A stretch of 64,000 bases of DNA from Candidatus Latescibacterota bacterium (GTDB lineage Bacteria; Latescibacterota; UBA2968; GCA-2709665): contig CBDCOX010000002.1 in assembly GCA_965219995.1 (NCBI GenBank), positions 4,576,001-4,640,000 on the forward strand, in the 5' to 3' direction. Shown piece after piece: positions 7,226 to 27,579 of this stretch. Position 1 is the first letter of the stretch, and the number at the start of each line of letters is the position of its first letter. Below the pieces are notes generated by a model. It was not told where the DNA came from. It saw only the letters and a list, made by a program, of their open reading frames with translations, and ran no database searches. A program made the translations under genes and the position numbers.

Positions 7226-7311
7226 ACGTTAAATTCAGGTTGACCACGAGAATCAATCGAAGACTCCCGCGGTAAGCCACCCATCTTCCTTTTCCATCGA
7301 GGTGTCTCAAT

Positions 7312-8319: not shown

Positions 8320-8396
8320 ACGTCAACGCGGCCGAATACCACCAGGGGTGCAGTTGACGCGCCCCTGTTCTTTTTGATTTCCAGGCCGAGGTCTCA

Positions 8397-10682: not shown

Positions 10683-10693
10683 GGGGAGTAACC

Positions 10694-11989: not shown

Positions 11990-12029
11990 AGAAACGGCCC
12001 TGCCGGGACAGAACACGAAAGGAGGAGAT

Positions 12030-13073
12030 ATGTCGGACACGGTACGCATTGGAGTGATCGGCGCCGGCGGCATTTTCCGGAGCCGTCACTTCCCGGGGCT
12101 GGCGAAGATCGGAAACGCGGAAGTGGTTGCCATCTGCAACCGGAGCGAGGAGAGCGCGGGGGCGATCGCGCGCGAGTTCGGCCTTTCGCCGAGATTGATG
12201 GCCGATCCGTACGCGTTGATCGGAAGCGAGGACGTGGACGCCGTGATGATCGGCACCTGGCCGTACAGGCACTGCGAATACGTGCTGGCGTCCCTGGACG
12301 CCGGAAAGCACGTCTTCGTACAGGCGCGGATGGCGATGAACCTGCGGGAGGCAAAGGCCATGTACGCCAGGGCGCTGGAAACCGGCCTTGTCACGCAGAT
12401 CTGTCCCTCACCGATGGCGATGAAAGGCGACTGGTTCATCCAGCGGCTGATCCGCGAGGGGTACCTGGGCGACGTCTACCATGTCTATACCCGATCGTTC
12501 AGCGGCGACAATTGCGATCCCGAACAACCTCTGCACTGGCGGCAGATCGACCGGTATTCCGGATTGAACGCGCTGAACATGGGCATCCTGGTGGAAATCG
12601 TGCAGCGCTGGGCAGGCCGGATGAAGACGATATCGGCGCACGCGGAGACGTTCATCAAGGTGCGCCCGCTGGCCGGCGGCCAGGGGACGGGACCGGTGGA
12701 GCGCCCCGATACCGTGCATATCATGGGACAGATGGAAAACGGCGCGCAGGCCGCGTTTCTGTTTTCCTCCGTGGCGCGGTTCGGCGTGGATCCGCAGGTG
12801 GAACTGTACGGCAGCGACGGGACCCTGATCTACAAACTTGACAACGACACCATTCTGGGCGGGCGGGCCGGAGAAAGCGGTCTTTCGGAGATTCCCATAC
12901 CGGATGACGAAGTCCGCGAGTGGACCGTGGAGCAGGATTTCGTGAACGCGATCCAGGGCGGCTCTCCCGGGGATACCACCTTCGAGGCGGGCGTAAACTA
13001 TATGGCGTTTACTGAAGCGGTGTTCAGATCCGCGGAACGGGGCGGCGTGGTGCATCTGCCCCTGGTGGATTGA
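12030..13073 (+). CDS. Gfo/Idh/MocA oxidoreductase
   Basis: 'RIGVIGAGGI' and 'AGKHVFVQARMA'; RBS AGGAGG. Confidence 0.9.
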   Translation: MSDTVRIGVIGAGGIFRSRHFPGLAKIGNAEVVAICNRSEESAGAIAREFGLSPRLMADPYALIGSEDVDAVMIGTWPYRHCEYVLASLDAGKHVFVQARMAMNLREAKAMYARALETGLVTQICPSPMAMKGDWFIQRLIREGYLGDVYHVYTRSFSGDNCDPEQPLHWRQIDRYSGLNALNMGILVEIVQRWAGRMKTISAHAETFIKVRPLAGGQGTGPVERPDTVHIMGQMENGAQAAFLFSSVARFGVDPQVELYGSDGTLIYKLDNDTILGGRAGESGLSEIPIPDDEVREWTVEQDFVNAIQGGSPGDTTFEAGVNYMAFTEAVFRSAERGGVVHLPLVD

Positions 13074-13099
13074 ACGCACATTCCGAAAGGGTCGGTTTC

Positions 13100-14116
13100 G
13101 TGGCAGGGGAATATCGAATCGCGGTGGCGGGCACGGGGTATATCGGCCTGGAACATATCAAGGCGATTGCCGCGCATCCTGGGGCGAAATTGCGCGCGAT
13201 CTGCGGATCGGAGCGCAGCGCGGGTCAGTTGAAGGATATGAAGGCCGAGTACGGCGCCGACGTGGTGACAACGGACTACGGGGAGATTGTTTCGGACGAT
13301 GCGGTCGACGTGGTCTATCTCTGCACGCCCAACCGGCTGCACGCCGATGAGGCCGTTGCCGCGCTGGAGGCCGGCAAGCACGTGTTCTGCGAAAAGCCCA
13401 TGGCGACCACGCTGCAGGATTGCCGGCGCATGGTTGACGCGGTAGAAAGTTCTGGCCGGCGGCTGATGGTGGGCCACGGCGCGCGTTTCAGGCAGCTGCA
13501 CCGCGCCGTCAAGGACCTGTTCGATTCGGGCAAGCTGGGCGAGGCCTGTTTCTGCGAGTCGGACTACGTCCATTCGCTGGGGCCGTTTCTTCAGGGTCCG
13601 GGTCACCAGTGGTGGCGCCACCCGGAAGAAGGTCAGTTCGCGGTGATAGGCGGGGCGTGCCATCCGCTGGACCTGATGCGATGGATCGTGGGGGAACTGG
13701 AAGAGGTGTCGGCCTATGGCGTCACGAAGGTCCTGCACGACGTGGACTGGCACGATACGGTGATCGCCACATTGAAGTTCAGGAACGGTGCGGTCGGCAA
13801 GTGCCTGGTGTCCGTGGGTGCGCCACGTCCGTATTCGATGACGTTCAATCTGTATGGCACCGAGGGTACGGTGGAAGAGAACCGGCTCTATCTGAGAGAA
13901 TTCGGAGAGATCGAGGCGTTCGCGGAGATCCCGTTTCCGGTGCTGGGCGAAGTGCACGCCTGTCCCGAGGAACTGTCGCATTTTCTGCGCTGCCTGGATA
14001 CGGGCGAGGCGCCGATGATCGACGTGCGGGACGGCGCGCGGACGATGGCGGCGTGTTTCGCGGTGGCGAAATCGATGGAAACCGGCCGGCCCGCGAGGGT
14101 GGTGACGGAATTCTGA
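13100..14116 (+). CDS. Gfo/Idh/MocA oxidoreductase (start could be 13070)
   Basis: 'IAVAGTGYIG', 'AGKHVFCEKPMA' and 'CHPLDL'. Confidence 0.9.
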   Translation: MAGEYRIAVAGTGYIGLEHIKAIAAHPGAKLRAICGSERSAGQLKDMKAEYGADVVTTDYGEIVSDDAVDVVYLCTPNRLHADEAVAALEAGKHVFCEKPMATTLQDCRRMVDAVESSGRRLMVGHGARFRQLHRAVKDLFDSGKLGEACFCESDYVHSLGPFLQGPGHQWWRHPEEGQFAVIGGACHPLDLMRWIVGELEEVSAYGVTKVLHDVDWHDTVIATLKFRNGAVGKCLVSVGAPRPYSMTFNLYGTEGTVEENRLYLREFGEIEAFAEIPFPVLGEVHACPEELSHFLRCLDTGEAPMIDVRDGARTMAACFAVAKSMETGRPARVVTEF

Positions 14117-14140
14117 GAGGATGGCGGAGGGGTCTGCAGA

Positions 14141-14989
14141 ATGGGTGACGTACGGCTGGTGGCTTTCGACCTGGACGGTACGCTGCTCGACGACCGGGGG
14201 CGGATGTCAGATGCGTCGGTCGAGGCGCTGCGGCGGCTGGCACGGGCCGGCATCGCGCTTGCGTCGATCAGCGGCCGGAACGTGGGAAAGAGCCTGGCGC
14301 CGTTTTCGCACGACCTGAGAGCGGCGCTGCATGTGGGCAGCTACAATGGCGCGATGGTGATGGGAACGGGCGCGGACGGCGAGCGGCCGCTGCTGCACGA
14401 ACAGCGACTGCCGCGGGACGGCCTTCCCGATCTGCTGGAATTTATCGACGACAGCCGGGTGAACTTCATCTATTGCCGGTGCGAGGCGGATGGCGGCGGT
14501 CTCAACGAGGCCTATCTGACGGACGAGGAAACCGTGTGCATCCGCAATCTGGTGCGGATGACCGGAGTAAATATCGTGCTTGAAGCGGATCTGCTGGCCA
14601 GGGCGCGCGACTTCGTTCCGCCGCCAAAGATGATCCTGCTGCCGGGTCCCGCCCGAAGGGAAGCTCTGTTCGAGCGGATGCGGGCGGCGTTCGGACGCCG
14701 GTTCTACCTCGCCCGCACGGGTGACGACCGGATTGAAGTCATGCACACGGAGGTGAACAAGGCGGTGGCTTTGCGGAAGCTCTGCGAGGCCTGCGATGTC
14801 TCACCTTCGCAGGCCATGGCGATTGGCGACGGGGACAATGATCTGCCGATGCTGAGGGAGGCGGGCATTGGCGTGCTGATGGGAAACGCGGACGGACTGA
14901 CCCGGAAATCAGCGGATTCCGCGGGCGTGCGGATGGCCGAGTCGCTTGCGGAAAACGGGTTTTCAAAAGCCGTCGCGAGGTACGTGTAG
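14141..14989 (+). CDS. Cof-type HAD hydrolase (subfamily IIB)
   Basis: 'FDLDGTLL', 'SGR', 'NKAVAL' and 'IGDGDNDLPML'. Confidence 0.9.
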   Translation: MGDVRLVAFDLDGTLLDDRGRMSDASVEALRRLARAGIALASISGRNVGKSLAPFSHDLRAALHVGSYNGAMVMGTGADGERPLLHEQRLPRDGLPDLLEFIDDSRVNFIYCRCEADGGGLNEAYLTDEETVCIRNLVRMTGVNIVLEADLLARARDFVPPPKMILLPGPARREALFERMRAAFGRRFYLARTGDDRIEVMHTEVNKAVALRKLCEACDVSPSQAMAIGDGDNDLPMLREAGIGVLMGNADGLTRKSADSAGVRMAESLAENGFSKAVARYV

Positions 14990-15008: not shown

Positions 15009-15776
15009 CTATTCAAGGCGGCTTCCCGATTCCTCCGCGATCTGCGCGTGAAGGTCCGCGCTGCTGGACAGTATGTGTTCCTCCATGGCCTGCTGCGCGG
15101 CGTCGGCGTCGCCTTTCCGGAGGGCGCGCAGGACTCTCCCGTGCTCGTCCAGGGACATCCGGGCCCGCTCCTCCACCGTGTGGGTTGCGGGATCTGCAAG
15201 GCTGGCCTTGATCCACTGCTGAAGGTAGTTGCGTATCATGACGAGGAGGTTGCGGAGGATCGAATTCTGGGTAGCCCGGGCAATGGCCAGGTGGAACTGA
15301 ACGTCGAATTCCAGGAATTCACCGGGTTGATCGAGAGATGCTTCGATTCCCCGGATTGTCCGGTCGAGTTCCCGGAGATCGGCCTCCGTGGCGCGCGACG
15401 CGGCGAGGAAGGCGTTCCGCGTCTCCAGCATCAGCCGGGTTTCGACGAGATCCTTGACTTCCTTCGGATCCAGCAGCAGTCCCCAACTCAGGGATTTCTC
15501 CAGGTAACGGCCGGTGTCGTCGCTAACGAACGTGCCTTCTCCGACACGGCTTTCCAGGATGCCCATCACGGAGAGCGAGCGGAGCGCTTCCCTGAGAGAG
15601 GTGCGACCGACCTCGAACTGTTTGCACAGGCTTCGTTCGGGCGGCAGCCGATCGCCCGGTTTCAGCACGTCCCGGGAGATGAGGTCGATGATCTGGGAGA
15701 CGATTTCGTCGCTCAGGGACGTCCGTTTGACGGGTGTCATCTGCTCGATGGCCGGGGGAGGGCGTTTCAGGTTCAC
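15009..15776 (-). CDS. FadR/GntR-family transcriptional regulator
   Basis: 'LKPGDRLPPERSLCKQFEVGRTSLREAL...GEGTFV' plus FCD domain 'FDVQFHLAIARATQN'. GTG start at 15776 after AAAGGG; the 15980 start overlaps the divergent gene. Confidence 0.9.
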   Translation of the reverse strand: MNLKRPPPAIEQMTPVKRTSLSDEIVSQIIDLISRDVLKPGDRLPPERSLCKQFEVGRTSLREALRSLSVMGILESRVGEGTFVSDDTGRYLEKSLSWGLLLDPKEVKDLVETRLMLETRNAFLAASRATEADLRELDRTIRGIEASLDQPGEFLEFDVQFHLAIARATQNSILRNLLVMIRNYLQQWIKASLADPATHTVEERARMSLDEHGRVLRALRKGDADAAQQAMEEHILSSSADLHAQIAEESGSRLE

Positions 15777-15825
15777 GCGAGATTTCCCTTTACAAAGCTG
15801 TGATTTTGGGTTAATCTTATATTTC

Positions 15826-15842
15826 AAATTGGTCTGACCATC
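15826..15842. promoter_or_regulatory. FadR-subfamily operator
   Basis: AATTGGTCTGACCATC contains the palindrome TGGTC-T-GACCA (15830-15840) and lies between the divergent regulator and the operon. It resembles the PdhR/LldR-type AATTGGT-N3-ACCAATT. Confidence 0.75.
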
Positions 15843-15909
15843 ATCACATCGGTAAAAGAACAGACCGGGTACCACGCTGTCAAGAGAAAACTTGCCGGAG
15901 GATGGCGCG

Positions 15910-16539
15910 ATGGGCCGAACCGTCGATATTGGAACGCGCATCGAACTGGTGCCGATGGATCCGCACTTCCATGAGATCACAATTGGTCTTTACCTGCAGG
16001 AGCACAACGGTGCTCCCGTGTATCGTGTGCACACGTACAGCGGAAAATCGGGCGCCGAGCAACGAATCGCGTTCGTCTCCAACGCAATGGCGGTGTTGGG
16101 CGGAATGCGACAGACAACGGACGGCCTTCTGCGATTTCCGTGCGGCGATGCGCACCTGCTGGCTTGCCGGCGTGTCTTTCTGGAAGCATGCAAGCTGGCC
16201 TCCGGCGGCGAACTCAAAGCCCGGCCCCTGACAATCCTCGACAGGAAGTCGGGATTGAACATAACGGTGTCGAGCGTGGGTGAAGGCGTGTACCGGATTG
16301 GCGCCGAAGGTGAGAGCAAGGACGGCGCGCGGAGGGTTGCGGCGATTGCGGGCGGGCTGGCCAAGCTCGGAGAAATGCAGTCTCGAGGCCCGGACACGGT
16401 CGCTTTCGCGTGCGGGCACGCGCATAACGCCGTGGTGGGGCTTCTTCTGGTTCGTGCACCGAACGTTCGGGCAGCGGTCCGAGAACAGGAAATGGCAGGC
16501 GCACGGGGCGTTCTGGCCGCGCCCAGCGAGCAACGTTAG
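15910..16539 (+). CDS. Hypothetical protein with an internal duplicated FxCGxAH motif
   Basis: RBS GGAGG; first gene of the methyltransferase operon; motifs 'RFPCGDAH' and 'AFACGHAH'. Confidence 0.75.
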   Translation: MGRTVDIGTRIELVPMDPHFHEITIGLYLQEHNGAPVYRVHTYSGKSGAEQRIAFVSNAMAVLGGMRQTTDGLLRFPCGDAHLLACRRVFLEACKLASGGELKARPLTILDRKSGLNITVSSVGEGVYRIGAEGESKDGARRVAAIAGGLAKLGEMQSRGPDTVAFACGHAHNAVVGLLLVRAPNVRAAVREQEMAGARGVLAAPSEQR

Positions 16540-16574
16540 TCGAAAAACAGGATTCCAGCCGGGAGAATTGAAAT

Positions 16575-17621
16575 ATGGCGACTCAAACAGTGGGCCCGAT
16601 GACCGGCCGTGAGCGGGTTCTGGCGGCGCTGAACCGGGAGCCGGTGGACCGGACGCCGGTATGCAATCCCACGTCCGTGGCGACGGTGGAGCTGATGGAT
16701 CTCGTGGACGCGCCGTTTCCTCACGCGAACAGGAACCCGGAACTGATGGCCCGGCTGGCCGCGACCGGGCACACCGAGTTGGGGTTCGATACGATCATGC
16801 CCGTGTTCACGATCATCCAGGAGTCGTCCGCGCTGGGTTGCAAGATCCAGTGGGAACAGAAGGACAACTGGCCCACGGTGAGGATGCGCGAGCCCATCTG
16901 GGAAGACGTGGACGATATCCGGATTCCGCCCGACCTTCTCACGCACCAGGATACGAAGTGCGTGCTGGATGCGATCCGGATTCTGAAGAAGGAATACGGG
17001 GACGACGTGGCGATTATCGGGAAGACGATGGGCCCGTGGTCGCTGGGATATCACTGCTTCGGGGTGGAGCCCTTTCTGCTCATGTCGCTGGACGACCCGG
17101 ACAAGACGAAGGCGTGCCTGGACAGGATGAAGGAAGCGACGGTGGACTTCGGGGTGGCGCAGATCGAGGCGGGCGCGGACGCGCTCACGCTGCCGGATCA
17201 CGCGACGGGCGACCTGGTGAGCGGGGAGTACTACAAGCGGTATCTGCGCGACCTGCACATCGAATTCGTGGAGCGGATCCCGATTCCGCTGATTCTGCAC
17301 ATCTGCGGACGGACCGTGGATCGGATGGAATATATCGCGCAGACGGGGATGCACGCGTTCCATTACGACTCCAAGAACGAGCCGGAAGAATCCATGGCGG
17401 CGGTCAAGGAGCGGATCTCGCTGGTGGGCAACGTCAACAATCCTGAGACGCTGTTTTCCAAAGGGCCCGAGGCGGTCCGCCAGGAGGTCGTCAACAACCT
17501 GGACGCCGGCGTGCATCTCGTGGGTCCCGAGTGCGCGATCCCGCTGCAGACGTCAATCGAGAACCTGAAGGAGATCCCCGGGGCGGTCCGGGACTGGCAC
17601 CGGGAGCACGCGGCAGGATAA
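16575..17621 (+). CDS. MtaA/CmuA-family (UroD-fold) Zn-dependent corrinoid methyltransferase
   Basis: 'MTGRERVLAAL..EPVDRTPV', 'QIEAGAD', Zn motif 'LHICG' and C-terminal 'GPEC'. Confidence 0.88.
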   Translation: MATQTVGPMTGRERVLAALNREPVDRTPVCNPTSVATVELMDLVDAPFPHANRNPELMARLAATGHTELGFDTIMPVFTIIQESSALGCKIQWEQKDNWPTVRMREPIWEDVDDIRIPPDLLTHQDTKCVLDAIRILKKEYGDDVAIIGKTMGPWSLGYHCFGVEPFLLMSLDDPDKTKACLDRMKEATVDFGVAQIEAGADALTLPDHATGDLVSGEYYKRYLRDLHIEFVERIPIPLILHICGRTVDRMEYIAQTGMHAFHYDSKNEPEESMAAVKERISLVGNVNNPETLFSKGPEAVRQEVVNNLDAGVHLVGPECAIPLQTSIENLKEIPGAVRDWHREHAAG

Positions 17622-17637
17622 GGGGGGCAGGAGCGCG

Positions 17638-18408
17638 ATGGCGGAACTCACTGATATCGGTAACGAATTCATCCGTGACGAAATCGAGGAGTTTCTCGAG
17701 CGGGAGGACGAGCGGGAGCGGGCGATCGCCACGTTTGCCGGCGTCACCCCCGATATGCAGGCGATTGCCGCGGCCCTGATCGACGGCGACCATCACGAGG
17801 TGGACGCGCTCACCAAAGAAGCACTGGATGCGGGTACCGGGGCGCTGGAGGTGATGGACGACGGGCTGATCGCGGGAATGGGCATCGTGGGGATCAAATT
17901 CCGGGAGAACTTCATCTTCGTGCCTGAAGTGCTGGCCTGCGCCCGGGCGATGAAGGCCGGGATGGCCTATATCGAGCCCATTCTGTCCGCATCGGGCGTC
18001 GAGCCGATCGGCACGGTCATTATGGGTACGGTAAAGGGCGACCTGCACGATATCGGAAAGAACCTCTGCATCATGATGCTTCGCGGCGCGGGGTTTGTGG
18101 TCCACGATCTGGGGGTGGACACGTCGGAAGACGAATTCCTGGATGCCGTGGAGGAGCACGGCGCGCCGCTGCTGGGGATGTCGGCGCTGCTGACGACGAC
18201 CATGCCCAATATGGGCAAAACGATCGAGGCGTTCATAGACGCGGATTTGCGCGAAGACGTCAAGATCATGGTGGGGGGCGCGCCCGTCACGCAGGAGTTC
18301 GCCGACGATATGGGCGCCGACGGGTACGGCAAAGACGCGATGGCGTGCGTGTCCCTGGCCAAGGACCTGCTCGACGAGACGAAGTCCGAGACCAACCTGA
18401 ATGCGTGA
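17638..18408 (+). CDS. Cobalamin-binding corrinoid protein (cap domain plus B12-binding domain)
   Basis: 'FVPEVL..ARAMK', 'GTVKGDLHDIGKNL', 'MSALLTTTM' and 'VGGAPV'. Confidence 0.95.
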   Translation: MAELTDIGNEFIRDEIEEFLEREDERERAIATFAGVTPDMQAIAAALIDGDHHEVDALTKEALDAGTGALEVMDDGLIAGMGIVGIKFRENFIFVPEVLACARAMKAGMAYIEPILSASGVEPIGTVIMGTVKGDLHDIGKNLCIMMLRGAGFVVHDLGVDTSEDEFLDAVEEHGAPLLGMSALLTTTMPNMGKTIEAFIDADLREDVKIMVGGAPVTQEFADDMGADGYGKDAMACVSLAKDLLDETKSETNLNA

Positions 18409-18692
18409 GCCCTACCGTGCGGAAAATCGACAAAGAGGAATATCAGAAGCGGCTGGACAGGATTACCGAACTGTTCGCAGGCATGATCGCCCACGCGGAT
18501 GAGCTTTCAACCGTACGGTGCCCGTATAAGAACCGTTTCGATGAGTGTACGGCGAAGTTCGGCTGCAGAAACCAGCGGAAGCCCCGCCCGGGCGGGACGC
18601 TGCTGATGTGCGGCGGAGACGACAAGCTCGACTATCGCGGCGCATGGGAGACGGAAGCGAAACCGGGTGCGTACTTCGGCAGCGAGGAGTAG
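18405..18692 (+). CDS. Small Cys-rich hypothetical protein
   Basis: GTG overlaps the upstream stop (GTGA) and the gene ends just before the next start. Contains 'RCPYKNRFDECTAKFGCRNQ...MCGGD'. Confidence 0.65.
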   Translation: MSPTVRKIDKEEYQKRLDRITELFAGMIAHADELSTVRCPYKNRFDECTAKFGCRNQRKPRPGGTLLMCGGDDKLDYRGAWETEAKPGAYFGSEE

Positions 18693-18693
18693 C

Positions 18694-20328
18694 GTGCTGG
18701 AAGGCCCGATGGGTACGATATCTCACGACGGGAAACGGAAGGAGCTTGCAGCCGGCAGGACCATCTTCGACTATGCGGATGAACTGGCGGTCCAGGTGCC
18801 CACCTCGTGCGGCCGCACCGGGCACTGTCACGAGTGCGTGGTTGAAATCAGGCGCGGCATGGACGCGCTGCGGCCCAGGAACGAGGTGGAGTCGTTCCTG
18901 CGGGAGCACTACCGCCTTGCGTGCCAGGCGGTGGTTGAAGACGACCGGGCCGATATCGAATTCTCGCCGTTGAGACGCAAGCCCAAGATTCTGGCAAGTA
19001 CGCTGGAAAAGTCGGTCGATCCGGACCCCCTGGTCACGCGCCGGGGGGACGTTGTCTATTACGACGACGTTGCCGTCGACAGGTATCGGGGCGGCCTTTA
19101 CGGCATCGCGATCGATCTGGGCACGACAACGGTGGTGATGGATCTCGTGGACCTGGAAACGGGGAGGAGCGTCCACGTCAGTTCATTCGAAAACCCGCAG
19201 CGTTTCGGCGGCAGCGACGTGATGCACCGCATCTCCTATGACGGGGAGTTTCAGGGCGAACTGCAGAAGGCGGTGGTCAATGCGATCAACCACGAAATCG
19301 TCGAACTCGGAAAACGCTTCGGCTTTGCCCGCCAGGAGATTTACGAGGTCGTTGTAGCGGGCAACTCCTCGATGCGGGATATCTTCTTCAGGCTGGACGT
19401 GCAAAGCATCGGCCAGCGACCGTACAAATCCGGTGTGGAGCGCGCCTATCTCAACGGCGAGCGGGAGACGACCTCCCTGCTGAAGGGTTCCCGGCGCCTC
19501 GGCGTGCGCGCCAATCCGAGGGCGATGGTCTACGGGATGCCGCTGATCGCCAGCCACGTGGGGGCGGACACCGCGGCCGACCTCGTTGCAATCGACCTGG
19601 CGTCTCAGGATGGTGTGGTGATGCTCGTGGACGTGGGGACCAACACCGAGGTTGTCGTGGGAAGTTCCGGCCGGCTGCTCACAGCCTCCTGTCCCGCCGG
19701 GCCCGCGTTCGAGGGCGGACTGGTCCGGTACGGGATGCCCGGACACGAAGGCGCCATTGAGTCGATCCGGCTGACGGACGACGGCTTCGAGTACCTGACA
19801 ATCGGACGCGTCGAACCGGAGGGAATTTGCGGGTCGGGGCTGATCGATCTGCTCGCGGAACTCCGGCGGCACGACCGAATGGCGCCCAAGGGCATGTTTG
19901 CCGGCAGGTCGTACGAGGTGCCGGTCGTTCCCGAGTACGGGATCACATTGTCCCGTGAAGACGCCAGCAACCTGGCCCAGGCCAAAGCCGCGAATTTCTG
20001 CGGGCAGTTCATCCTGATGCGACACCTCGGGATTGGACCGGAAGACGTAGACACGCTCTACCTGGCCGGCGGATTCGCGAATTACGTGAACGTAAGGAAC
20101 GCGATCGAGATCGGATTTCTGGCGCCGATCGCCGAAGACCGGGTCGTGAAGATCGGGAATGCCGCGGTCCAGGGCGCGCGCGAGGTGCTGCTTTCGCGCG
20201 AAAAACGGGCGTCCGTGGAAGCGCTGGTGAAGAAGATCGAACACGTCGAGCTCGAGACGACGCCGGACTTCTTCGAGGTGTTCGTGGAGGGCTGCCAGTT
20301 CAAGCCGATGCCGACTAGGCTAAATTAA
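18694..20328 (+). CDS. RamA/RACo-type ATP-dependent reductive activator of corrinoid proteins (ASKHA, DUF4445) with an N-terminal 2Fe-2S domain
   Basis: 'SCGRTGHCHEC...RLACQ', 'IDLGTTT', 'DVGTNTE', 'CPAGPAFEG', 'GICGSG' and 'LAGGF'. Confidence 0.92.
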   Translation: MLEGPMGTISHDGKRKELAAGRTIFDYADELAVQVPTSCGRTGHCHECVVEIRRGMDALRPRNEVESFLREHYRLACQAVVEDDRADIEFSPLRRKPKILASTLEKSVDPDPLVTRRGDVVYYDDVAVDRYRGGLYGIAIDLGTTTVVMDLVDLETGRSVHVSSFENPQRFGGSDVMHRISYDGEFQGELQKAVVNAINHEIVELGKRFGFARQEIYEVVVAGNSSMRDIFFRLDVQSIGQRPYKSGVERAYLNGERETTSLLKGSRRLGVRANPRAMVYGMPLIASHVGADTAADLVAIDLASQDGVVMLVDVGTNTEVVVGSSGRLLTASCPAGPAFEGGLVRYGMPGHEGAIESIRLTDDGFEYLTIGRVEPEGICGSGLIDLLAELRRHDRMAPKGMFAGRSYEVPVVPEYGITLSREDASNLAQAKAANFCGQFILMRHLGIGPEDVDTLYLAGGFANYVNVRNAIEIGFLAPIAEDRVVKIGNAAVQGAREVLLSREKRASVEALVKKIEHVELETTPDFFEVFVEGCQFKPMPTRLN

Positions 20329-20409
20329 AGCGGCGGTATGCTGGGTTGCCTTTGGGGAGAATCTCACGAAAGTCCGAACATTTCGCCCTGTCTGGGAGCG
20401 TCGATGTTC

Positions 20410-20577
20410 GTTGAGCATGTCGATACGTGGTCATTGAGCTTGTCGAAATGCCCGTGTTTCGTCACCCCTTAGAATGGCTCCAGGCGCACCAACGGGTGCC
20501 CTTTGCAGGTTTTCGCCGACCCTTCGACCCTTCGACAAGCTCAGGGCAACGCATGCTCAGGGAGCGGCTCAGGGCAC
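20410..20577. repeat. Cluster of TTCGACAAGCTCA-family palindromic repeats, partly nested
   Basis: ttgagcatgtcga, ttgagcttgtcgaaatg, and ccttcgac-ccttcgacaagctcagggcaacgc-atgctcagggagcg-gctcagggc. Confidence 0.75.
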
Positions 20578-20715
20578 AGTCGGTTCTTGTGCTTTTTTCA
20601 GACGTTGTACTTAGCTTGTTGACCGGCTGTTGGCCGGTCGACGCGCCGGCCGAATTCAGCGACGCCATATCCGCGACGGAAGACTAAAGTCACAACTAAA
20701 ATCGAGCACATTCGC

Positions 20716-22317
20716 ATGGCGATACATTCTGGAAAATCCGATCCGGACCGAGGGGACGGGGAGAAGCATACCCTGCGGCATCTGCTCGAGGAAACGGACG
20801 AATTTGTCGTCTGCGTGGAACTGGTCAATTCCCGCGGGGTGATCACCGAACGCCGCGGGCGGCAGGTTCTGGATCTCGCGCGGGCGCTTGCCGACCATCC
20901 GGGCGTGCACGCGCTGAGCATCACCGACAATCCGGGCGGAAACGCCACGAACAGTCCGGACACGATGGGGATCGACCTGCTGGGCCGGGGGCAGGAGGTG
21001 ATCATCCACATTTCGTGCAAGGACTGGAACCGGAACGCGTTGCTGAGCAGGGCCTGGGAACTGGCGAGCGGAGGATTCGAAAACGTGCTGGCGCTGTCGG
21101 GCGACTATCCCGCGGACGGATACCGCGGGCAGGCGGACGGCGTGTTCGATACCGATTCGGTGGGTCTGTTGAGGATGTTCTCGGAAATGAATTCGGGGAT
21201 GCGCCTCGGAGGCGGCAGGCGCGATCAGGTATTGCAACCCACACAATTCTTCCCGGGCGCGGTGGTCAACAACCACAAGAAATATGAGCGCGAGGTGATG
21301 CCGCAATATTTCAAACTTGCGAAAAAGATCCGGAACGGCGCCGGATTCATCATCAACCAGATCGGTTACGACGCCCGCAAACAGGACGAGTTGCTGAAGT
21401 ACATGGCCCTTCACGGTCTCCCCACGCCCGTGCTCGCCAACGTCTACGTGCTCAGCCCCGCGGCAGCCAGGTTTTTTCACGCGGACAACATCCCCGGCGT
21501 GATCGTAACCGACGAACTGCTTGCGCTCACGCAGAGGCATGCCCGTTCGCGAGACCGGGGCAGGGCCTTCTTTCTGGAATTCGCCGCCAGGCAGTGCGCC
21601 ATTGCCAGAGGACTGGGATATCGCGGCGTCTATCTTGGGGGACACCTGAAGTTCGAGGACTATGCGCGTATCCTTGAGATTCTTGGCGAATACGGAGACG
21701 AGGACTGGAAGGACTTTGTGGATGGGATTCTCTTCCGTCAGCCCGGGGAGTTCTTCTTCTTCGAACCCGATACGGAAACGAGGCTCAGTTCGAACGAGGT
21801 CAACCGCAAATACCGGCATTCGAAGCAACCCGACGTCCTGCGGGCCGCCAGGAGCCGGGTGTCCGCGGGCTACCGCTTGAATCGATTCGTCCATGAAAAT
21901 GTCTTCGAAAAGGAAAAGCCGGCCTTTCGTATCGGAAGAAAATTATTCGAGGCCATGGACCGCGCCGGAAGCGGCGTCCGGAGGGCCGCGCATGGCGCGG
22001 AGCAGGCGGTGAAGATCCTGGGCTTCGACTGCCGGGACTGCGGCGACTGTTCGCTGCCGGATATCGCGTTTCTCTGTCCCGAGTCGCAGTGCGTCAAGAA
22101 CCAGCGGAACGGACCGTGCGGCGGAACCCGCCGGGGCCGGTGCGAAGTGGGAGAAAAGGAATGCATCTGGTCGCTGGCCTACGAACGGCTCAAGGCATAC
22201 GGAGAGGAAGAGAAGATGCTGGACGGGCCAGTGGTCTTCAAGGACGGCGCCCTGAAAGGCACCAGCGCCTGGGCCAATGTATTTCTGGAGCGGGACCACC
22301 GCGCACGTACCAGATGA
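20716..22317 (+). CDS. metF: Methylenetetrahydrofolate reductase with a fused C-terminal Cys-rich MetV-like domain
   Basis: 'ITDNP', 'HISCKDWNR', 'LALSGD' and 'KIRNGAGFIINQIGYD'; C-terminal 'CRDCGDC...CP..QCVKNQRNGPCGG...CEV..KECIW'. Confidence 0.88.
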   Translation: MAIHSGKSDPDRGDGEKHTLRHLLEETDEFVVCVELVNSRGVITERRGRQVLDLARALADHPGVHALSITDNPGGNATNSPDTMGIDLLGRGQEVIIHISCKDWNRNALLSRAWELASGGFENVLALSGDYPADGYRGQADGVFDTDSVGLLRMFSEMNSGMRLGGGRRDQVLQPTQFFPGAVVNNHKKYEREVMPQYFKLAKKIRNGAGFIINQIGYDARKQDELLKYMALHGLPTPVLANVYVLSPAAARFFHADNIPGVIVTDELLALTQRHARSRDRGRAFFLEFAARQCAIARGLGYRGVYLGGHLKFEDYARILEILGEYGDEDWKDFVDGILFRQPGEFFFFEPDTETRLSSNEVNRKYRHSKQPDVLRAARSRVSAGYRLNRFVHENVFEKEKPAFRIGRKLFEAMDRAGSGVRRAAHGAEQAVKILGFDCRDCGDCSLPDIAFLCPESQCVKNQRNGPCGGTRRGRCEVGEKECIWSLAYERLKAYGEEEKMLDGPVVFKDGALKGTSAWANVFLERDHRARTR

Positions 22318-22327
22318 GGGGAACACT

Positions 22328-23374
22328 ATGCAACTGGATGGCAGGGCCGGCGAATTTGTCGTCATCGGCGAAAACATCCATACCACACGCGTTGTCCTGA
22401 GGAGAGGACGGCTCGTGGTGAAGAAACCCGGTGGAGGGGAGGCGGTCCGATTCTTCGACACACGGAAGCGACGCCGCTTTCTTGCCATTCCCCAGGATAT
22501 CCGGCAGACGCAGGACTACGAGGAGGGTCGGGTCAAACACGTCAAGATTGCCGTGCAGGCGGCGATGTCCGGTCAGTCGCCGCAGGCCGATGACGGGCTG
22601 GCCTATCTGCACCGGATGGTCCAGCGCCAGGTGGACGCGGGAGCGGACTATCTGGATCTGAACGTGGACGAAGTCTCGCTGCGTCTGAAGGAGCAGAAGA
22701 AAGCCATGCGGTGGCTGGTGGGCGTCGTACAGAAGATAAGCCCGATTCCGATATCGGTGGACTCCTCCAACGTGGAAACGATCGGGGACGGGCTCAATGC
22801 CTGCGACGGCCGGGCCGGACGGCCGCTGCTGAATTCGGCCTCGCTGGAGCGACTGGAGGCGCTGGACCTGGCCGTGAGGTACAACGCCCGGGTTGTCGTG
22901 ACCGCCGCAGGCGAAAGCGGGATGCCGCAGGACGCTGCGGACCGCGTCGCGAATGCGTCCCGCATGGTCGACGCGGCGCTGTCCAGGGGGATCGCGATCG
23001 AGGATGTTTTCGTGGATGCCCTGGTCTTTCCCATCTCCGTGGACGGGGGATTCGGCAACCACTGCTTCGAGGCCATCCGGACGCTGCGCGCGAATTTCGG
23101 CCCGGGGATTCACGTGACGGGCGGGTTCAGCAACGTCTCTTTCGGGCTGCCGTGCCGGCGCCTCATCAACGACGTGTTCACGATCCTCGCGGTCGAGGCC
23201 GGGGCGGACAGCGGGATCGTCGACCCGGCCATCAGCAGCCCGGAGCGCGTTTTCTCCATGGACCGGGAGACGGAACCCTACCGGCTTGCGGAAGACATGC
23301 TCCTGGGGCGGGATCGCATGTGCAAGAACTACCTGCGCGCGTATCGAAAGGGTACGCTGGACGCTTACCGTTAA
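22328..23374 (+). CDS. Pterin-binding methyltransferase (AcsE or MetH folate-domain-like)
   Basis: 'VIGENI', 'QVDAGADYLDLN', 'ISVDSS', 'LLNS', 'VDALVFPI' and 'GFSNVSFGLP'. Confidence 0.88.
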   Translation: MQLDGRAGEFVVIGENIHTTRVVLRRGRLVVKKPGGGEAVRFFDTRKRRRFLAIPQDIRQTQDYEEGRVKHVKIAVQAAMSGQSPQADDGLAYLHRMVQRQVDAGADYLDLNVDEVSLRLKEQKKAMRWLVGVVQKISPIPISVDSSNVETIGDGLNACDGRAGRPLLNSASLERLEALDLAVRYNARVVVTAAGESGMPQDAADRVANASRMVDAALSRGIAIEDVFVDALVFPISVDGGFGNHCFEAIRTLRANFGPGIHVTGGFSNVSFGLPCRRLINDVFTILAVEAGADSGIVDPAISSPERVFSMDRETEPYRLAEDMLLGRDRMCKNYLRAYRKGTLDAYR

Positions 23375-23399
23375 CGAATCGGGGAGGATCCGGGAGGAG

Positions 23400-24461
23400 A
23401 TGAAGACATTTCTGGACAGGCTGGAAGATTCCAGCCCTATGGTTTACGACGGAGGATTCGGTTCGGAACTGTTCAAAGGGCGTATCGAACTGACGAACAG
23501 CGCGCTCGCAAACGAACTGCATCCGGACGCGGTGGTCGATATCCACTCCGCCTATATCGCAGCGGGAACCGACGTCATCGGGACCAACACTTTCGTGGCG
23601 TCGCCACTGCATCTGGAGATGGCGGGCAAAGCGGGGAACGAGGCCGGCAAGATCGCCGGGCTGGCCGTGGAACACGCGAGAACGGCAATCGAACAGTGCG
23701 GCCGGGGGGTCCATGTTGCGGGCTCCGTCGGTCCGTCGCCGGGCGCTATCGAGTCGGACGCGGGCGATACGGTATTCGGTATTGCGGACAGGAAGGCGAG
23801 GGCGGCGCACGAGCAGGTCATCCATGCGCTGGCGGAGGCGGGGGTAGACCTGATCTGTATCGAGACCATGTTCTCCGCCAAAGAAGCCGCCATTGCGGCG
23901 GACATTGCCAGGAAGACCGGATTGCCCGTCGCAATCAATCTGACGTGCAAATACACGAAAGACCGGAAGACGGGCGAGGTGGTCTACCGGACGGACTGGG
24001 GGCATTCAGCGGATGACCTGCTGGATTTTCTGGGCTCCGGAGAGTTTTCAGGCGGAGAAAACCTGCTGGAGCACGTGCAAATCATCGGGATGAACTGCGG
24101 TGCGGAGACGCGCCGGGTGGAGCATACCGGGATGCCATACGCAATCAACGGGATGCGGCAGTTCACGGATGCAATGTCCGCGCGGGGCGTCAACGGGATC
24201 AGGTTGATGGCCTATCCCAACGCGGGGCTCCCGCAGCTGGAGAGAAAGACAGGACGGACGACGTATTCGCAGACCGAGGAGGAAATGGCGCATTGTGTTC
24301 CGGAATTGATCGGCGCGGGTGCCTTCATCGTCGGAGGGTGTTGCGGGACGGGGCCGTCGCATATCCGCGCTATACACGGGATGTTGAACGGCGGGGCCGC
24401 CAATGACGGAAAAGCCTGGCGTTCGGCTGGCGCCCGAGAACTGACAAATGGGCGGGACTGA
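23400..24461 (+). CDS. Homocysteine S-methyltransferase domain protein (stand-alone MetH N-terminal module)
   Basis: 'YDGGFGSEL', 'TNTF', 'AGSVGP', 'IETM', 'GMNC', 'YPNAGLP' and 'GGCCGT'; RBS GGAGGAG. Confidence 0.9.
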   Translation: MKTFLDRLEDSSPMVYDGGFGSELFKGRIELTNSALANELHPDAVVDIHSAYIAAGTDVIGTNTFVASPLHLEMAGKAGNEAGKIAGLAVEHARTAIEQCGRGVHVAGSVGPSPGAIESDAGDTVFGIADRKARAAHEQVIHALAEAGVDLICIETMFSAKEAAIAADIARKTGLPVAINLTCKYTKDRKTGEVVYRTDWGHSADDLLDFLGSGEFSGGENLLEHVQIIGMNCGAETRRVEHTGMPYAINGMRQFTDAMSARGVNGIRLMAYPNAGLPQLERKTGRTTYSQTEEEMAHCVPELIGAGAFIVGGCCGTGPSHIRAIHGMLNGGAANDGKAWRSAGARELTNGRD

Positions 24462-24482
24462 CAGAGCGCGAAAGGGTGACAC

Positions 24483-24749
24483 GTGGCCGAGTACCAGGTG
24501 CTCTACTGGAAGGAAATCCCCGCCCAGGTGCGGGTTTTCGACGGGAAGCGGCGCGTCGCGCGGCAGATGCCCCCGGAGTTTCAGGAGGCGATCGACCGGC
24601 GGGCGATGCAGGAAGGGCTGGCCGGAACCGACGCGTACCTGGCGCATTGGCAATGGAGTGAACGTCGCGAGCGCCGAGGCGACCCGCAGGAAATCCTGGA
24701 GGCGGTTATGGAAGAACTCGAACGGACGTACGGCGAACGGGCAGGATAA
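24483..24749 (+). CDS. 'Virulence factor' (Virulence_fact-like) small protein
   Basis: 'YWKEIPAQV...FQEAIDRRAM..G...TDAYLAHW' signature. Confidence 0.8.
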   Translation: MAEYQVLYWKEIPAQVRVFDGKRRVARQMPPEFQEAIDRRAMQEGLAGTDAYLAHWQWSERRERRGDPQEILEAVMEELERTYGERAG

Positions 24750-24786
24750 ACCGCAGCGCGCCCGACAGGTTTCTGGAGGCAAGGAG

Positions 24787-24815
24787 AGAGCCGGAGTTTC
24801 CGGCTCTTTTTGTTT
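24787..24815 (+). terminator. Intrinsic terminator ending the methyltransferase operon
   Basis: AGAGCCGGA-GTT-TCCGGCTCT followed by TTTTGTTT. Confidence 0.8.
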
Positions 24816-24835: not shown

Positions 24836-26419
24836 CTACAACACGCCTGCCCCCTGAACGGGAGACGCGACCGTGAGCCTTTCCCGGACCCTGCGTGGCT
24901 CATAGTACCTGCCGCGCATGGCATCGATGATGTCCTGCACGCCGTCAGATCCGACCAGGACCATCATGCTTCCGCCCAGGCCGGCGCCGGATATCTGCGC
25001 GCCCACCGCGCCCGCATCCAGGGCAATGTCGACCATTTCATCGATCTCCGGGATGCTGCAATTGTAGTCGCCCGGTTGCATGTGGAGGTCTTTTGCCGGG
25101 TCGAATCGCGGCGCGTTCATGTCGATGCGGTCGCCGTCGTGCGAGACGTTCATCAACTCGCCGTAGAGGTCCACCCGGTTCCGGTTCAGGACGTCCTTGA
25201 GATCTCTGCTTCGCGCGGATTCGGCGATACCGTAGGCAATGACCATCCGGATATGGTATCCGCCGGCCGGTTCCTCGTGGGTGGCGAACTGCTGCTCGAG
25301 AAACGTCTCTTCGCCCGGCAACCGGCGCAGGAGCTCCCGGCGGTCGATCCGTTCCGGCAGAGACGCTATCAGCGCGTAGATTTCCGGTTGGGCGAGGCAT
25401 TCAACCACGTCGCCCAGGTGGAATTTCTTCTCGACGTCCAGATCCTTTCTGTCCGCCACGACCCTTCGGATCGATTCGGGATGGCGCGCTTCCAGGCCGT
25501 TTCGAAGAAAGACCTCTCCGATCTCGTACGTTGCGGTCTTTTCGTTGAATTTCTGGCCGGCCGATCCGGTCTTGTTGGCCTGGATTCCCGAGTCGAAGAT
25601 GATGATCTGATAGCCGTCCGGAAACGGCAGATAGGCGTCGATCAACAATTCCGGCAGGGTTTTCATATGGGTAATTCTACCCAGCCGGCCGCACTTGATC
25701 GCGGCGTGGTCGCCGAAACCGCCGCGTGTTCCGACGTACCATTCCGAGGTGCCCGCGTATCTCACGAACTGCCCGTCGTCCAGGACGATATCGTTGACGT
25801 GCGTCATGATCTCCGTCGTCGCGACGACAACCGCGGACGAAGAACTCAGGCCGCCCATGTCCGGCAGGCTGCTGCCCATGACTCCGTCGAATCCGCGCAG
25901 TTTCCTGCCGGGATAGCGGGTGTGCAGGTATGCCGGCGGCGCCTGCAGTTTGGTAATCCAGTCCTCGTTGACACCGGCGGCCTTGCGTTCGTCGGTCTTT
26001 TCCTGCGTCCACTCCAGCCACTCGGCATCGGTACGGATCGGCGAGTCCGGGCAGATTTCCGGCAGATGAAAACGACGGGTCCCGTAAGCCGGATCCAGAT
26101 TGTGCACCTCGACCTGATCGTCGTCTCTTCCGGAGTAACAGATGAGAATCTCTTTGTCAAGGGAAATGGGGTTGATGAAGGCGCCCCGGTGGTCGGCGTG
26201 CATCCCAACCGTGTTCAACCGGCCCGGCGCCCTGACGAAACCGACGTCTCTCTCACCGAAGATCTCCCTGAATCGCATCGCGGTCGCCAGGAGGGCGCCG
26301 AGACGTTCTTCGACAAGCTCCTCGCTGTCGCCGTAGACGGACCGAAGGCGGGAGATCAGATCATCGTTCCGGCCCCGAATCGCACGGACCCACTCAGGCG
26401 TGTTCTTCTGTCCGATCAT
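24836..26419 (-). CDS. GHMP-family anomeric sugar kinase (galactokinase/GalNAc-kinase-like)
   Basis: 'RAPGRLNTVGMHADH', 'P.MGGLSSSSA' and 'GAQISGAGLGGS'. Confidence 0.85.
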   Translation of the reverse strand: MIGQKNTPEWVRAIRGRNDDLISRLRSVYGDSEELVEERLGALLATAMRFREIFGERDVGFVRAPGRLNTVGMHADHRGAFINPISLDKEILICYSGRDDDQVEVHNLDPAYGTRRFHLPEICPDSPIRTDAEWLEWTQEKTDERKAAGVNEDWITKLQAPPAYLHTRYPGRKLRGFDGVMGSSLPDMGGLSSSSAVVVATTEIMTHVNDIVLDDGQFVRYAGTSEWYVGTRGGFGDHAAIKCGRLGRITHMKTLPELLIDAYLPFPDGYQIIIFDSGIQANKTGSAGQKFNEKTATYEIGEVFLRNGLEARHPESIRRVVADRKDLDVEKKFHLGDVVECLAQPEIYALIASLPERIDRRELLRRLPGEETFLEQQFATHEEPAGGYHIRMVIAYGIAESARSRDLKDVLNRNRVDLYGELMNVSHDGDRIDMNAPRFDPAKDLHMQPGDYNCSIPEIDEMVDIALDAGAVGAQISGAGLGGSMMVLVGSDGVQDIIDAMRGRYYEPRRVRERLTVASPVQGAGVL

Positions 26420-26604
26420 TCATCCGTCCTTCCGGAATCGGGCGCCTGCAACCGGGTCTGTTTGCGCCGGTGTCCTGGACGCCATCTGACGCGCCATGGG
26501 CTGAGAAGCTGTGAAAAGAGAAAACGACAACGCTTCCAAACCACTCGAGAGGCGTTGCCGTTCTGTTCCGCAAAGATGCCGCCGAACCTCGCCGGGAAAG
26601 CGAA

Positions 26605-27576
26605 TTACAGCTTGTCCGGATCGAAGATGCCTTTCTGCGTGTCCACGACCCGCTCGGACCGGGTCTTGAACATCGTGCCGGCCGGATAATATCCTGCTTT
26701 GACGTAAGCAAGGCCGTAGGAGATGCACATGGGCCCCAGCAATGTGCCGGGATCCGTGAGAGACTCGCAAGCCAGTTGCGTCCTGTCGCCGAGAACGACG
26801 CCCATCTTGGACCCGCCCAGGTCGTACCATTTGTCGTTGATGACGACCTTCAGATTGACGCGTTTGTCGCGTTCCCGAACGCCCTGGATGATGCCCAGGT
26901 TCGCGGCCGTGGCCTGGTTGCCGAAGTGGGTGGCGTACCCGCAGAGACTGTCGCCGAGATACGAGGGATGGGGGAAATTCGCCTCGTCGAGCATGAGGAC
27001 GTTCTTGATTTCGCCCCGAATGGCGTTGTCGCCCTGTTTCTTGTGACCGCCCAGGATGATATTGCCCCGGAGATAGGCGCCCTGTCGGATTTCGTTATTC
27101 GGTCCGATGATCGTGGGTCCCTTGACGCCCGCAGTGGGCTCGATAACGGCGCCCTCCCCGACGTAGACGTCGCCGCCGTCCAGGTAGATGACCGCGCCGA
27201 CCACCTTTGCTCCTCTTGCAACGTATAGCGTGTGGCCCTCGCCGTCGAGGGATCCGTGCACGAAGAGCGGTTCGCAGACGGCGCCGGGCTCGACCAGCAC
27301 CGTGTAGTTTCCGATTCCGGACAGGCCGGTCCGTTCTTCCACGCCCCGGGCGGAACCGATTTTCTCCGCCAGCCATTCCGTGGCGTATTTTTCGATTCCG
27401 TCTTTGCCGATGAGGTCGACGACGGACCTGGCGCCGTCGACCAGCGCCCGGTGCTCGAACGGGTATCTGTCGAGATCGAAGAAGTTGGACGGTCTCAACT
27501 CGCCGGGGACCTCGTCCGCCGCCAGTTCGGTTACAATGACCGGATCGTCCTTCGTGCCGGTTCCATTCATGGCCAT
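26605..27576 (-). CDS. Left-handed beta-helix (GlmU acetyltransferase-like) protein
   Basis: Hexapeptide repeats 'VYVGEGAVIEPTAGVKGPTIIGPNNEIRQGAYLRG', 'EIKN', 'HPSYLGDS' and 'KMGVVLGD'. No nucleotidyltransferase domain visible. Confidence 0.8.
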   Translation of the reverse strand: MAMNGTGTKDDPVIVTELAADEVPGELRPSNFFDLDRYPFEHRALVDGARSVVDLIGKDGIEKYATEWLAEKIGSARGVEERTGLSGIGNYTVLVEPGAVCEPLFVHGSLDGEGHTLYVARGAKVVGAVIYLDGGDVYVGEGAVIEPTAGVKGPTIIGPNNEIRQGAYLRGNIILGGHKKQGDNAIRGEIKNVLMLDEANFPHPSYLGDSLCGYATHFGNQATAANLGIIQGVRERDKRVNLKVVINDKWYDLGGSKMGVVLGDRTQLACESLTDPGTLLGPMCISYGLAYVKAGYYPAGTMFKTRSERVVDTQKGIFDPDKL

Positions 27577-27579
27577 CAC

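Follow-up and report, generated by a model that had tools for sequence, protein, structure and literature searches.

A candidate corrinoid methyl-transfer hub with a predicted two-subunit MtaA-like methyltransferase in Candidatus Latescibacterota

The 64,000-nucleotide stretch analysed here (hereafter the window; positions 4,576,001 to 4,640,000 of contig CBDCOX010000002.1, assembly GCA_965219995.1, Candidatus Latescibacterota bacterium) carries a cluster of cobalamin-dependent methyl-transfer genes, in which the gene of an MtaA/CmuA-family methyltransferase of the UroD fold is preceded by that of a small protein of no recognized family, termed unk209. Ten closely spaced plus-strand open reading frames (ORFs) fill positions 15910-24749, and the gene of a GntR-family regulator with an FCD domain points the opposite way. 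Judged by spacing, the genes form two tight blocks, with gaps of 8-35 nucleotides within 15910-20328 and of 10-25 nucleotides within 20716-24749. The first block encodes unk209, the MtaA-like enzyme, a stand-alone corrinoid protein, a short Cys-rich ORF and an activase of the RACo/RamA type; the second encodes a fused MetF-MetV, a pterin-binding methyltransferase, a homocysteine methyltransferase and a small PF13769 protein. An initial annotation, made from the letters of the window alone, had described one co-oriented cluster, which is correct for the methyl-transfer genes but not for the regulator, which lies on the minus strand and is divergent. All the genes listed in that annotation were recovered by Pfam and NCBIfam, run on the cluster ORFs (14 + 4 scanned) and on 21 other large window ORFs. 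Its inventory was nevertheless incomplete, as three conserved ORFs had been overlooked: unk209 (209 residues), the Cys-rich ORF (92 residues) and the PF13769 protein (88 residues).

The MtaA-like enzyme scored 252.8 bits against the NCBIfam model TIGR01463 (mtaA_cmuA), above the cut-off of 235.4, and 265.8 bits against PRK06252 (cut-off 244). It missed the equivalog cut-offs of MtaA (NF040654; 241.7 versus 400) and MtbA (NF041608; 204.6 versus 600). The closest solved relative is MtaA (PDB 4ay7), with an E-value of 1e-54. Residues H242, C244 and C320 of the enzyme align with the H-x-C...C positions (HIC and GC) of this structure, and all three are invariant across 23 aligned MtaA-like sequences. 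These positions, which we take to be the zinc ligands of MtaA, are thus conserved in a way that fits thiol or thioether chemistry. Homologues of the enzyme are abundant (3831 matches, the best 120 at 84-95% identity), and the few that are named come from metagenome-assembled genomes (MAGs) of Latescibacteria, Gemmatimonadetes and Poribacteria. A tblastn search of plasmids for CmuA-type references returned 26 records, all of them UroD-family sequences at 27% identity or less and none of them CmuA.

Related loci were surveyed with one genome per species, which gave at least 555 candidate stretches, at least 514 of them encoding relatives of the MtaA-like enzyme. The best 80 of the latter (83-96% identity, cited below by L numbers) were kept with 10-kb flanks. 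Genes were counted by tblastn of the window proteins, and counts out of 63 refer to those of the 80 loci with at least 9 kb downstream. The loci stem from MAGs labelled Latescibacterota, Poribacteria, Gemmatimonadota, Acidobacteriota, Lentisphaeria and others. In all 80 of them, unk209 lies directly upstream of the MtaA-like gene on the same strand, with 48-95% identity to the window protein and intergenic gaps often of 0-50 nucleotides; the ORF is complete at 79 loci and truncated by a contig end at L041. In the window, a GGAGGA motif sits 7 nucleotides ahead of its ATG.

The unk209 sequence matched no Pfam family at E<=0.01 and no NCBIfam model. A profile search without length filter among 1.84 billion representative proteins found only 282 matches at E<=1e-3, and among the best 150 matches listed none exceeded 359 residues, most being about 210 residues long or shorter fragments. 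Two apparently longer forms were rejected as fusions: P0203 (345 residues) has a URO-D start after a low-complexity stretch and is read as a frameshifted call across adjacent genes, and P0180 carries no domain. The AlphaFold2 model of unk209, built from 28 sequences, has a mean predicted local distance difference test (pLDDT) score of 88 and a predicted template modelling (pTM) score of 0.84, and is composed of two β-β-β-α repeats. Structural similarity search using Foldseek gave no match in the PDB at E<=1e-3 (best E-value 0.026, template modelling score <=0.21), and a search of the ESM Atlas gave no usable match. The conserved features of the protein are an N-terminal strand, an HTYS motif, two F-P-C-G-x-x-H motifs, an LLxRAPNVR motif and a C-terminal RGVLxAPSQQ tail. 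In unk209 of L076, both Cys/His pairs are replaced together and the remainder of the protein is kept; because of this joint loss, the pattern suggests that the four Cys/His residues make up a single, dispensable structural metal site. We found no account of the unk209/MtaA-like pair in literature on PF13769, on Poribacteria or Latescibacteria MtaA, or on methylthiol methyltransferases of Gemmatimonadota and Acidobacteriota.

Structure prediction of the unk209-MtaA-like complex yielded ipSAE interface scores of 0.89, 0.00 and 0.89 in three runs (median 0.89), compared to 0.00 for the best of three controls. The partner pLDDT did not fall below 77, and at least 1% of contacts were common to the runs. 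Of 80 solved complexes, 58 reached the mark applied to this score, as did 2 of 110 mismatched pairs; these rates are approximate because our own alignments were used. Since unk209 has no fold match in the PDB, the pass is unlikely to stem from a remembered structure. On the enzyme side, the predicted interface comprises residues 38-47, 95-99, 289-298 and 320-332, including the putative Zn ligand Cys320; on the side of unk209, it comprises residues 1-26, 42-46 and 197-202. Binding of unk209 to the MtaA-like enzyme is therefore predicted from these models, and the strict company of the two genes at all 80 loci indicates that the methyltransferase is probably a two-subunit enzyme.

The corrinoid protein is closest to the NCBIfam model of MtgC type 2, with 193 bits, under the cut-off of 370, and its translation contains the D-x-H-x-x-G stretch in the form GDLHDIG. 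The activase has the ferredoxin (Fer2), Raco_middle and RACo_C_ter domains, and likewise stays under the curated cut-offs (AcsV-type, 286 versus 800 bits; RamA, 126 versus 500 bits). Because the alignment with relatives begins at Met15 of the listed ORF, that residue was taken as the start of the activase. The initial annotation was right to recognize a RACo activator, but overlooked that the Cys-rich N-terminal piece is detached. This piece, which has no Pfam family and carries the motif RCPYKNRxDxCTAxFGC...C, stands as an ORF of its own in the window and in L001-L010, and is fused in frame to RACo in other loci, for example L011-L013, L027, L052, L055, L077 and L078. The 92-residue ORF was therefore rejected as an independent small protein, since other lineages have it as the N-terminal part of RACo. 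As the split is seen in the window and in L001-L010, it is characteristic of a lineage rather than an error of this window.

All four modules of the methionine synthase MetH (PF02574, PF00809, PF02607 and PF02310) are present, spread over three proteins, whose scores against the MetH equivalog TIGR02082 (137.8, 110.2 and 91.5) are far below the cut-off of 1010.85. Consistent with the initial annotation, the S-adenosylmethionine-dependent MetH reactivation domain (PF02965) and the MttB and MtaB families were not found in the scanned cluster ORFs or in the 21 other large window ORFs. The MttB-superfamily pfam06253, to which MtgB-type enzymes belong, is also absent from both of these sets and from the ORFs scanned in related loci. 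MetF and MetV, listed as two proteins before, both exist as domains but belong to one. The fusion is genuine: in 27 of 28 loci, one tblastn high-scoring segment pair runs across both domains, and the remaining locus is truncated by a contig end. The pterin methyltransferase, whose start was placed at Met18 of the listed ORF, scored 203.6 bits against the domain model PRK07535 (cut-off 259), and the homocysteine methyltransferase shows NCG and GGCCG stretches. The PF13769 gene always stands beside the pterin or homocysteine methyltransferase gene in related loci; its family name looks uninformative, and a role in folate or corrinoid methyl transfer seems more likely.

The conservation of the cluster as a whole is uneven (Table 1). 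Of the 32 loci that combine a corrinoid protein with at least 9 kb downstream, RACo is present in 31, the pterin methyltransferase in 27, MetF-MetV in 25 and the homocysteine methyltransferase in 18. Conversely, the pair stands without any gene of the corrinoid cluster at 34 loci whose downstream flank measures 1.5 kb or more; apart from one from an uncultured bacterium, all of these carry the label Poribacteria. Neighbourhood conservation, which the initial annotation had put forward as a check on the MtaA-like gene, thus gives a mixed picture, from the corrinoid protein at 32/63 and the homocysteine enzyme at 18/63 to nothing at 34 loci. Where mobile elements break the cluster, the corrinoid protein and RACo remain with the pair. 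The inserts in such interrupted Poribacteria clusters are transposases, HNH, restriction-modification genes or PhyH, with no further methyltransferase. In L013, L017 (11200-11970), L011, L012 and L016 (13800-19000), we observed an inserted HNH endonuclease, IS605 OrfB/TnpB-like and DDE transposases and an Eco57I-type methylase, falling between the MtaA-like and corrinoid genes or between RACo and MetF-MetV. In addition, L019 and L022 lie about 60 kb apart on the same Acidobacteriota contig and hold two cluster copies with identical unk209, either a recent duplication or an assembly repeat.

Table 1. Features of the methyl-transfer cluster in the window and their occurrence at related loci (of the 63 with at least 9 kb downstream, or of all 80 where stated)
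Feature	Position	Strand	Family or domain match	Related loci
GntR-family regulator with FCD ligand domain	15009..15740	-	PF00392 1e-19, PF07729 2e-25 (Pfam)	27/63; upstream of pair in 31/80 overall
unk209, 209 aa, family-less, predicted partner subunit of MtaA-like enzyme	15910..16539	+		
MtaA/CmuA-family UroD-fold Zn methyltransferase	16575..17621	+	PF01208 6e-67, TIGR01463	
Stand-alone corrinoid (B12-binding) protein	17638..18408	+	PF02607 + PF02310	32/63; 38/80 overall after MtaA-like gene, 74-98% identity
Cys-rich 92-aa ORF, detached N-terminal domain of RACo, 4 conserved Cys	18417..18692	+		31/63; 35/80 overall
RACo/RamA-type ATP-dependent corrinoid activase, [2Fe-2S] ferredoxin domain	18709..20328	+	PF00111, PF17651, PF14574	31/63
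387-nt inter-block gap	20329..20715	.	no Rfam family	
Fused MetF-MetV methylene-tetrahydrofolate reductase	20716..22317	+	PF02219 res 65-248, PF12225 res 422-501	25/63
Stand-alone pterin-binding methyl-tetrahydrofolate:corrinoid methyltransferase	22328..23374	+	PF00809 3e-24	27/63
Stand-alone homocysteine S-methyltransferase domain protein	23400..24461	+	PF02574 7e-53	18/63
PF13769 ('Virulence_fact') protein, 88 aa, final gene of block	24483..24749	+	1.5e-21	23/63
Complete window-like set				14/63

The positions in Table 1 include revised starts; the ORFs as listed before revision were 15009-15980 for the regulator, 18667-20328 for RACo, 22277-23374 for the pterin enzyme and 23286-24461 for the homocysteine enzyme. 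The shorter form of the regulator is the probable one, because its Pfam match begins at residue 80, a Met, of the listed ORF. Rfam at gathering score detected no riboswitch or leader RNA in the whole window, and a permissive Rfam scan of 20250-20780 gave a single chance-level match (E=0.5). Between 14900 and 25000, we found one promoter-like site versus 2.3 expected, none convincing, and 16 terminator-like sites versus 8.4 expected, none well placed.

The corrinoid protein is missing from 42 loci, counting short ones, and each of these belongs to one of two further conserved contexts. In the first (35 Poribacteria-type loci, namely L032, L035-L038, L042-L051, L053-L054, L056-L060, L062-L073 and L079-L080, at about positions 5000-11000 of each), genes of a PQQ_2 β-propeller and a Beta-lactamase2 protein lie upstream of the pair, and dockerin-domain proteins often follow downstream. 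In the second (seven loci), the pair lies between mraW and a group encoding an unknown protein, a Rieske protein and cytochrome b. A maximum-likelihood tree of unk209 places the two contexts in separate clades, with support of 100/99 and 99/95.

We tentatively favour a reading, which we hold to be somewhat short of evenly probable, in which demethylation by an unk209/MtaA-like heterodimer feeds both tetrahydrofolate (THF) and methionine through a corrinoid hub that has three methyltransferases (MtaA-like, pterin-binding and homocysteine-binding) and an ATP-driven activase of its own. The core module would consist of unk209, the MtaA/CmuA-family Zn enzyme, the corrinoid protein and RACo, the last in two pieces here. 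As a heterodimer, unk209 and the MtaA-like enzyme would exchange a methyl group between a small S-methyl or thiol compound and the cobalt of the corrinoid protein: a methylthio donor such as methylmercaptopropionate, methanethiol or dimethylsulfide would methylate Co(I), and CH3-Co(III) would then pass the methyl group either to homocysteine or to THF, where it would be oxidised or assimilated. The second block would tie the same corrinoid protein to folate and methionine, with the pterin methyltransferase connecting it to THF, MetF-MetV interconverting methyl- and methylene-THF, and the homocysteine methyltransferase forming methionine from the hub methyl. The gene content and the conservation of the pair and of the Zn ligands are observations, and the interaction within the pair is predicted; that one corrinoid protein is common to all parts is inferred, as are the direction of flow and the substrate. 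That an S-methyl compound is demethylated we propose with moderate confidence, because of the Zn-thiolate site and by analogy, not because of any neighbour gene.

Demethylation of a donor is favoured on four grounds, namely the conservation of the THF link, the divergent ligand-sensing regulator, the context-specific clades of the pair and the catabolic nature of the closest systems (MtgBCDE and CmuAB). The THF link is kept in 27 of 32 loci compared to 18 of 32 for the homocysteine link, as expected for a catabolic route. A more specific version of this reading, which appears quite unlikely to us as it stands, would make the pair a new two-subunit corrinoid-dependent methylthio demethylase of uncultured marine or sponge-associated bacteria, in which the new-fold subunit sets specificity and the Poribacteria clades serve different donors of one hub.

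Several observations weigh against demethylation through such a hub. Thermodynamics disfavours transfer of a methyl group from a thioether to cob(I)alamin, whereas the step from CH3-Co(III) to a thiol is easy, as reported in 10.1101/548461. The pair alone at 34 loci might use another carrier there or have another role. Of the three complex predictions, one scored 0.00, and only 7 of the 33 invariant unk209 positions are among the 27 interface residues, compared to about 4 by chance, which adds little support. Moreover, the 80 loci are the best of at least 514 related stretches, and neither a substrate-specific transporter, a sulfur-metabolism gene nor a recurrent neighbour occurs among the 51 + 49 + 51 flank ORFs of selected loci.

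The thermodynamic point leads directly to the same hub run in reverse, in which MetF-MetV and the pterin methyltransferase charge the corrinoid protein from methyl-THF and either of two Zn enzymes discharges it, the homocysteine enzyme making methionine and the pair S-methylating another thiol in a biosynthetic or detoxifying step. This is the native, thermodynamically easy direction of MtaA-type enzymes; MtpA, for instance, moves methyl from methylcobalamin to mercaptopropionate robustly and barely back (10.1101/548461). The conserved Zn ligands of the MtaA-like enzyme and the position of MetF-MetV next to the pterin methyltransferase agree with such a flow as well. However, no candidate acceptor pathway is found in any flank examined, and the divergent FCD regulator and the context-specific Poribacteria clades would look more like substrate-inducible catabolism. 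We consider the reversed flow unlikely, although it stays a strong rival because both the thermodynamics and the native direction of MtaA favour it. Improbable, by comparison, is an ordinary split methionine synthase made up of the pterin, B12 and homocysteine modules with RACo and MetF, next to which the MtaA-like pair would have a separate job. The 34 loci where the pair lacks any corrinoid or MetH-type gene and the complete window-like set at only 14 of 63 loci speak for it, as does the established precedent of a three-part MetH with a RamA-like activase (PMC5764234). Against it, the corrinoid protein and RACo follow directly behind the pair with gaps of 16 and 8 nucleotides, they accompany it even at loci where the MetH-type genes have been displaced or are lacking (L061, L044 and L078 among them), and the arrangement recurs in MAGs of several phyla.

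The function of the pair itself may also be drawn differently. It could be a methylcorrinoid:homocysteine (core) methionine synthase, or a methyl supplier as proposed for MesX with MesD. MtaA shares the use of Zn-activated thiols with MetE-type core synthases, MesD requires the uncharacterised partner MesX according to PMC7857596, and the PF02574 gene is missing within the flank in 14 of 32 cluster loci. Since the window already has a PF02574 homocysteine methyltransferase, unk209 resembles neither DUF1852 nor any Pfam family, and the pair is found in extra Poribacteria contexts, we regard this as very improbable. A similarly small chance is given to a non-catalytic unk209, acting as regulator, chaperone, inhibitor or protein substrate of the MtaA-like enzyme. 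Its predicted interface does cover the active-site face including Cys320 and involves the conserved C-terminal tail of unk209, and its Cys/His residues are lost together in L076 with the rest retained; but the strict 1:1 adjacency at 80 of 80 loci, with gaps often of 0-50 nucleotides, is more typical of obligate subunits, and the conserved tail has no Cys that could accept a methyl group.

Control by the regulator had been assumed in the initial annotation; the GntR/FCD gene adjoins the operon but is divergent and accompanies only 27 of 63 loci. Its nearest NCBIfam models are NanR, LldR and PdhR, all under cut-off. FCD-type regulators usually sense carboxylates, which would fit a carboxylated donor. 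Nothing in the window or in the examined flanks of related loci identifies any of the donors named in the same annotation, so that the donor is a guess. The flanks in other phyla hold FeoAB, translation factors, peptidases, PhyH, mobile elements and restriction-modification genes, with nothing recurrent. In L011 (Poribacteria), a formate-THF ligase gene at 6485-8224 lies beside the GntR regulator of the cluster, a possible one-carbon-folate link.

In the window itself, the flanks at 7312-14989 and 24836-28527 resemble sugar or inositol metabolism, with a xylose-isomerase-like TIM barrel, two GFO/IDH/MocA oxidoreductases, a HAD hydrolase, a GalK-like GHMP kinase with long insertions (527 residues), a hexapeptide transferase and an inositol-monophosphatase-like protein. 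The suggestion of a methylated sugar as donor was based on such neighbours alone, and they are not conserved outside close relatives; being syntenic only in L001-L010, these genes are probably unrelated to the methyl-transfer genes. Farther downstream, very large surface-type or eukaryote-like proteins are encoded at 35879-44509, 47488-52122, 58672-60501, 44810-46687 and 55460-57542, among them a Calx-beta/fn3 protein of 2876 residues, a Peptidase_M60 + WD40 protein of 1544 residues, a leucine-rich repeat (LRR) protein and several ending in FlgD_ig-like domains. Such proteins presumably fit a host-associated lifestyle, for example that of a sponge symbiont, and the isolate names of many relatives look sponge-derived.

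The pair is of interest in several respects. As a protein of no family, annotation or solved fold, unk209 offers a concrete handle on the activity of the pair. If the substrate is a methyl-sulfur compound, the cluster would fill a gap in the enzymology of marine organosulfur cycling and point to a wider B12 demand in these bacteria. A cobalamin-dependent dimethylsulfide/methanethiol methyltransferase has been inferred physiologically since 1993 and is described in PMC6548844 as still unidentified. Were the pair indeed a methylthio demethylase, it would be of this long-sought type, and different donors would feed the hub and thence one-carbon oxidation and methionine synthesis.

Compared to the MtaA, MtbA, MtsA and MtpA enzymes of methanogens (4ay7), the MtaA-like enzyme shares the UroD fold, the H-x-C...C Zn site, a small corrinoid protein and a RamA-type activase. 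It differs in missing the equivalog scores of MtaA and MtbA and in its constant 209-residue partner; to our knowledge, no obligate extra subunit has been described for archaeal MtaA-type enzymes, and the carriers of the window-type enzyme are bacteria not known to make coenzyme M. The CmuAB chloromethane pathway of Methylobacterium similarly combines an MtaA/CmuA-family enzyme, a corrinoid carrier and a pterin methyltransferase leading to THF, and oxidises methyl-THF by means of a MetF paralogue. CmuA, however, is a methyltransferase fused to its corrinoid domain, whereas the window has both as separate proteins.

Within the MtaA family, action on a methyl-sulfur compound has precedent in MtpA, which works on methylmercaptopropionate (10.1101/548461). 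The type 1 mlp clusters of anaerobic Firmicutes, described by Kountz and Balskus (PMC10418091), also have MtaA-like genes beside a corrinoid protein and a RACE-type activase, and a role in methyl-sulfur or methyl-selenide metabolism was proposed for them. As portrayed in that report, they possess at least two paralogues (Mlp2 and Mlp3), lack a THF methyltransferase and belong to obligate anaerobes, whereas the window has a single UroD-family gene, a PF00809 THF methyltransferase and a new partner protein. A dependence like that proposed for the pair is known from MesD, a Zn barrel methyltransferase of the same broad superfamily, which strictly needs the adjacent small protein of unknown function MesX (PMC7857596). 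Nevertheless, MesD is described there as MetE-like and cobalamin-independent, and MesX (DUF1852) has no sequence similarity to unk209.

A close likeness in overall layout is that to MtgBCDE of Ruegeria pomeroyi and Phaeobacter inhibens (PMC12478193, PMC5764234), with stand-alone corrinoid, pterin and homocysteine proteins, a RamA-like activase and MetF. In Phaeobacter, a three-part MetH was shown genetically to be reactivated by a RamA-like protein (PMC5764234). In Ruegeria, according to PMC12478193, it was proven genetically that glycine betaine demethylation and methionine synthesis share one corrinoid protein and one pterin methyltransferase, and a MetF paralogue oxidises methyl-THF. There the pterin enzyme is bidirectional and the hub is common to catabolism and methionine synthesis, features that may also hold here, where the domains are present and adjacent. 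The earlier proposal of a hub routing methyl groups to THF or to homocysteine thus fits the gene content and a proven case, but is not new (PMC12478193). The differences lie in the surroundings of the hub: the window has no DUF1638, MetF is fused to MetV, and the genes are clustered, whereas those of Ruegeria are scattered. Above all, the donor enzyme of the described system is MtgB (MttB superfamily, pfam06253), in whose place the window has the MtaA/CmuA-family enzyme with its 209-residue partner. Altogether, a corrinoid hub with a dual catabolic and methionine role is already published for glycine betaine, and the cluster described here is predicted, from the modelled complex, to connect a different, two-subunit methyltransferase to it, which suggests that the same hub logic extends with another methyltransferase beyond the glycine betaine case of marine Alphaproteobacteria.

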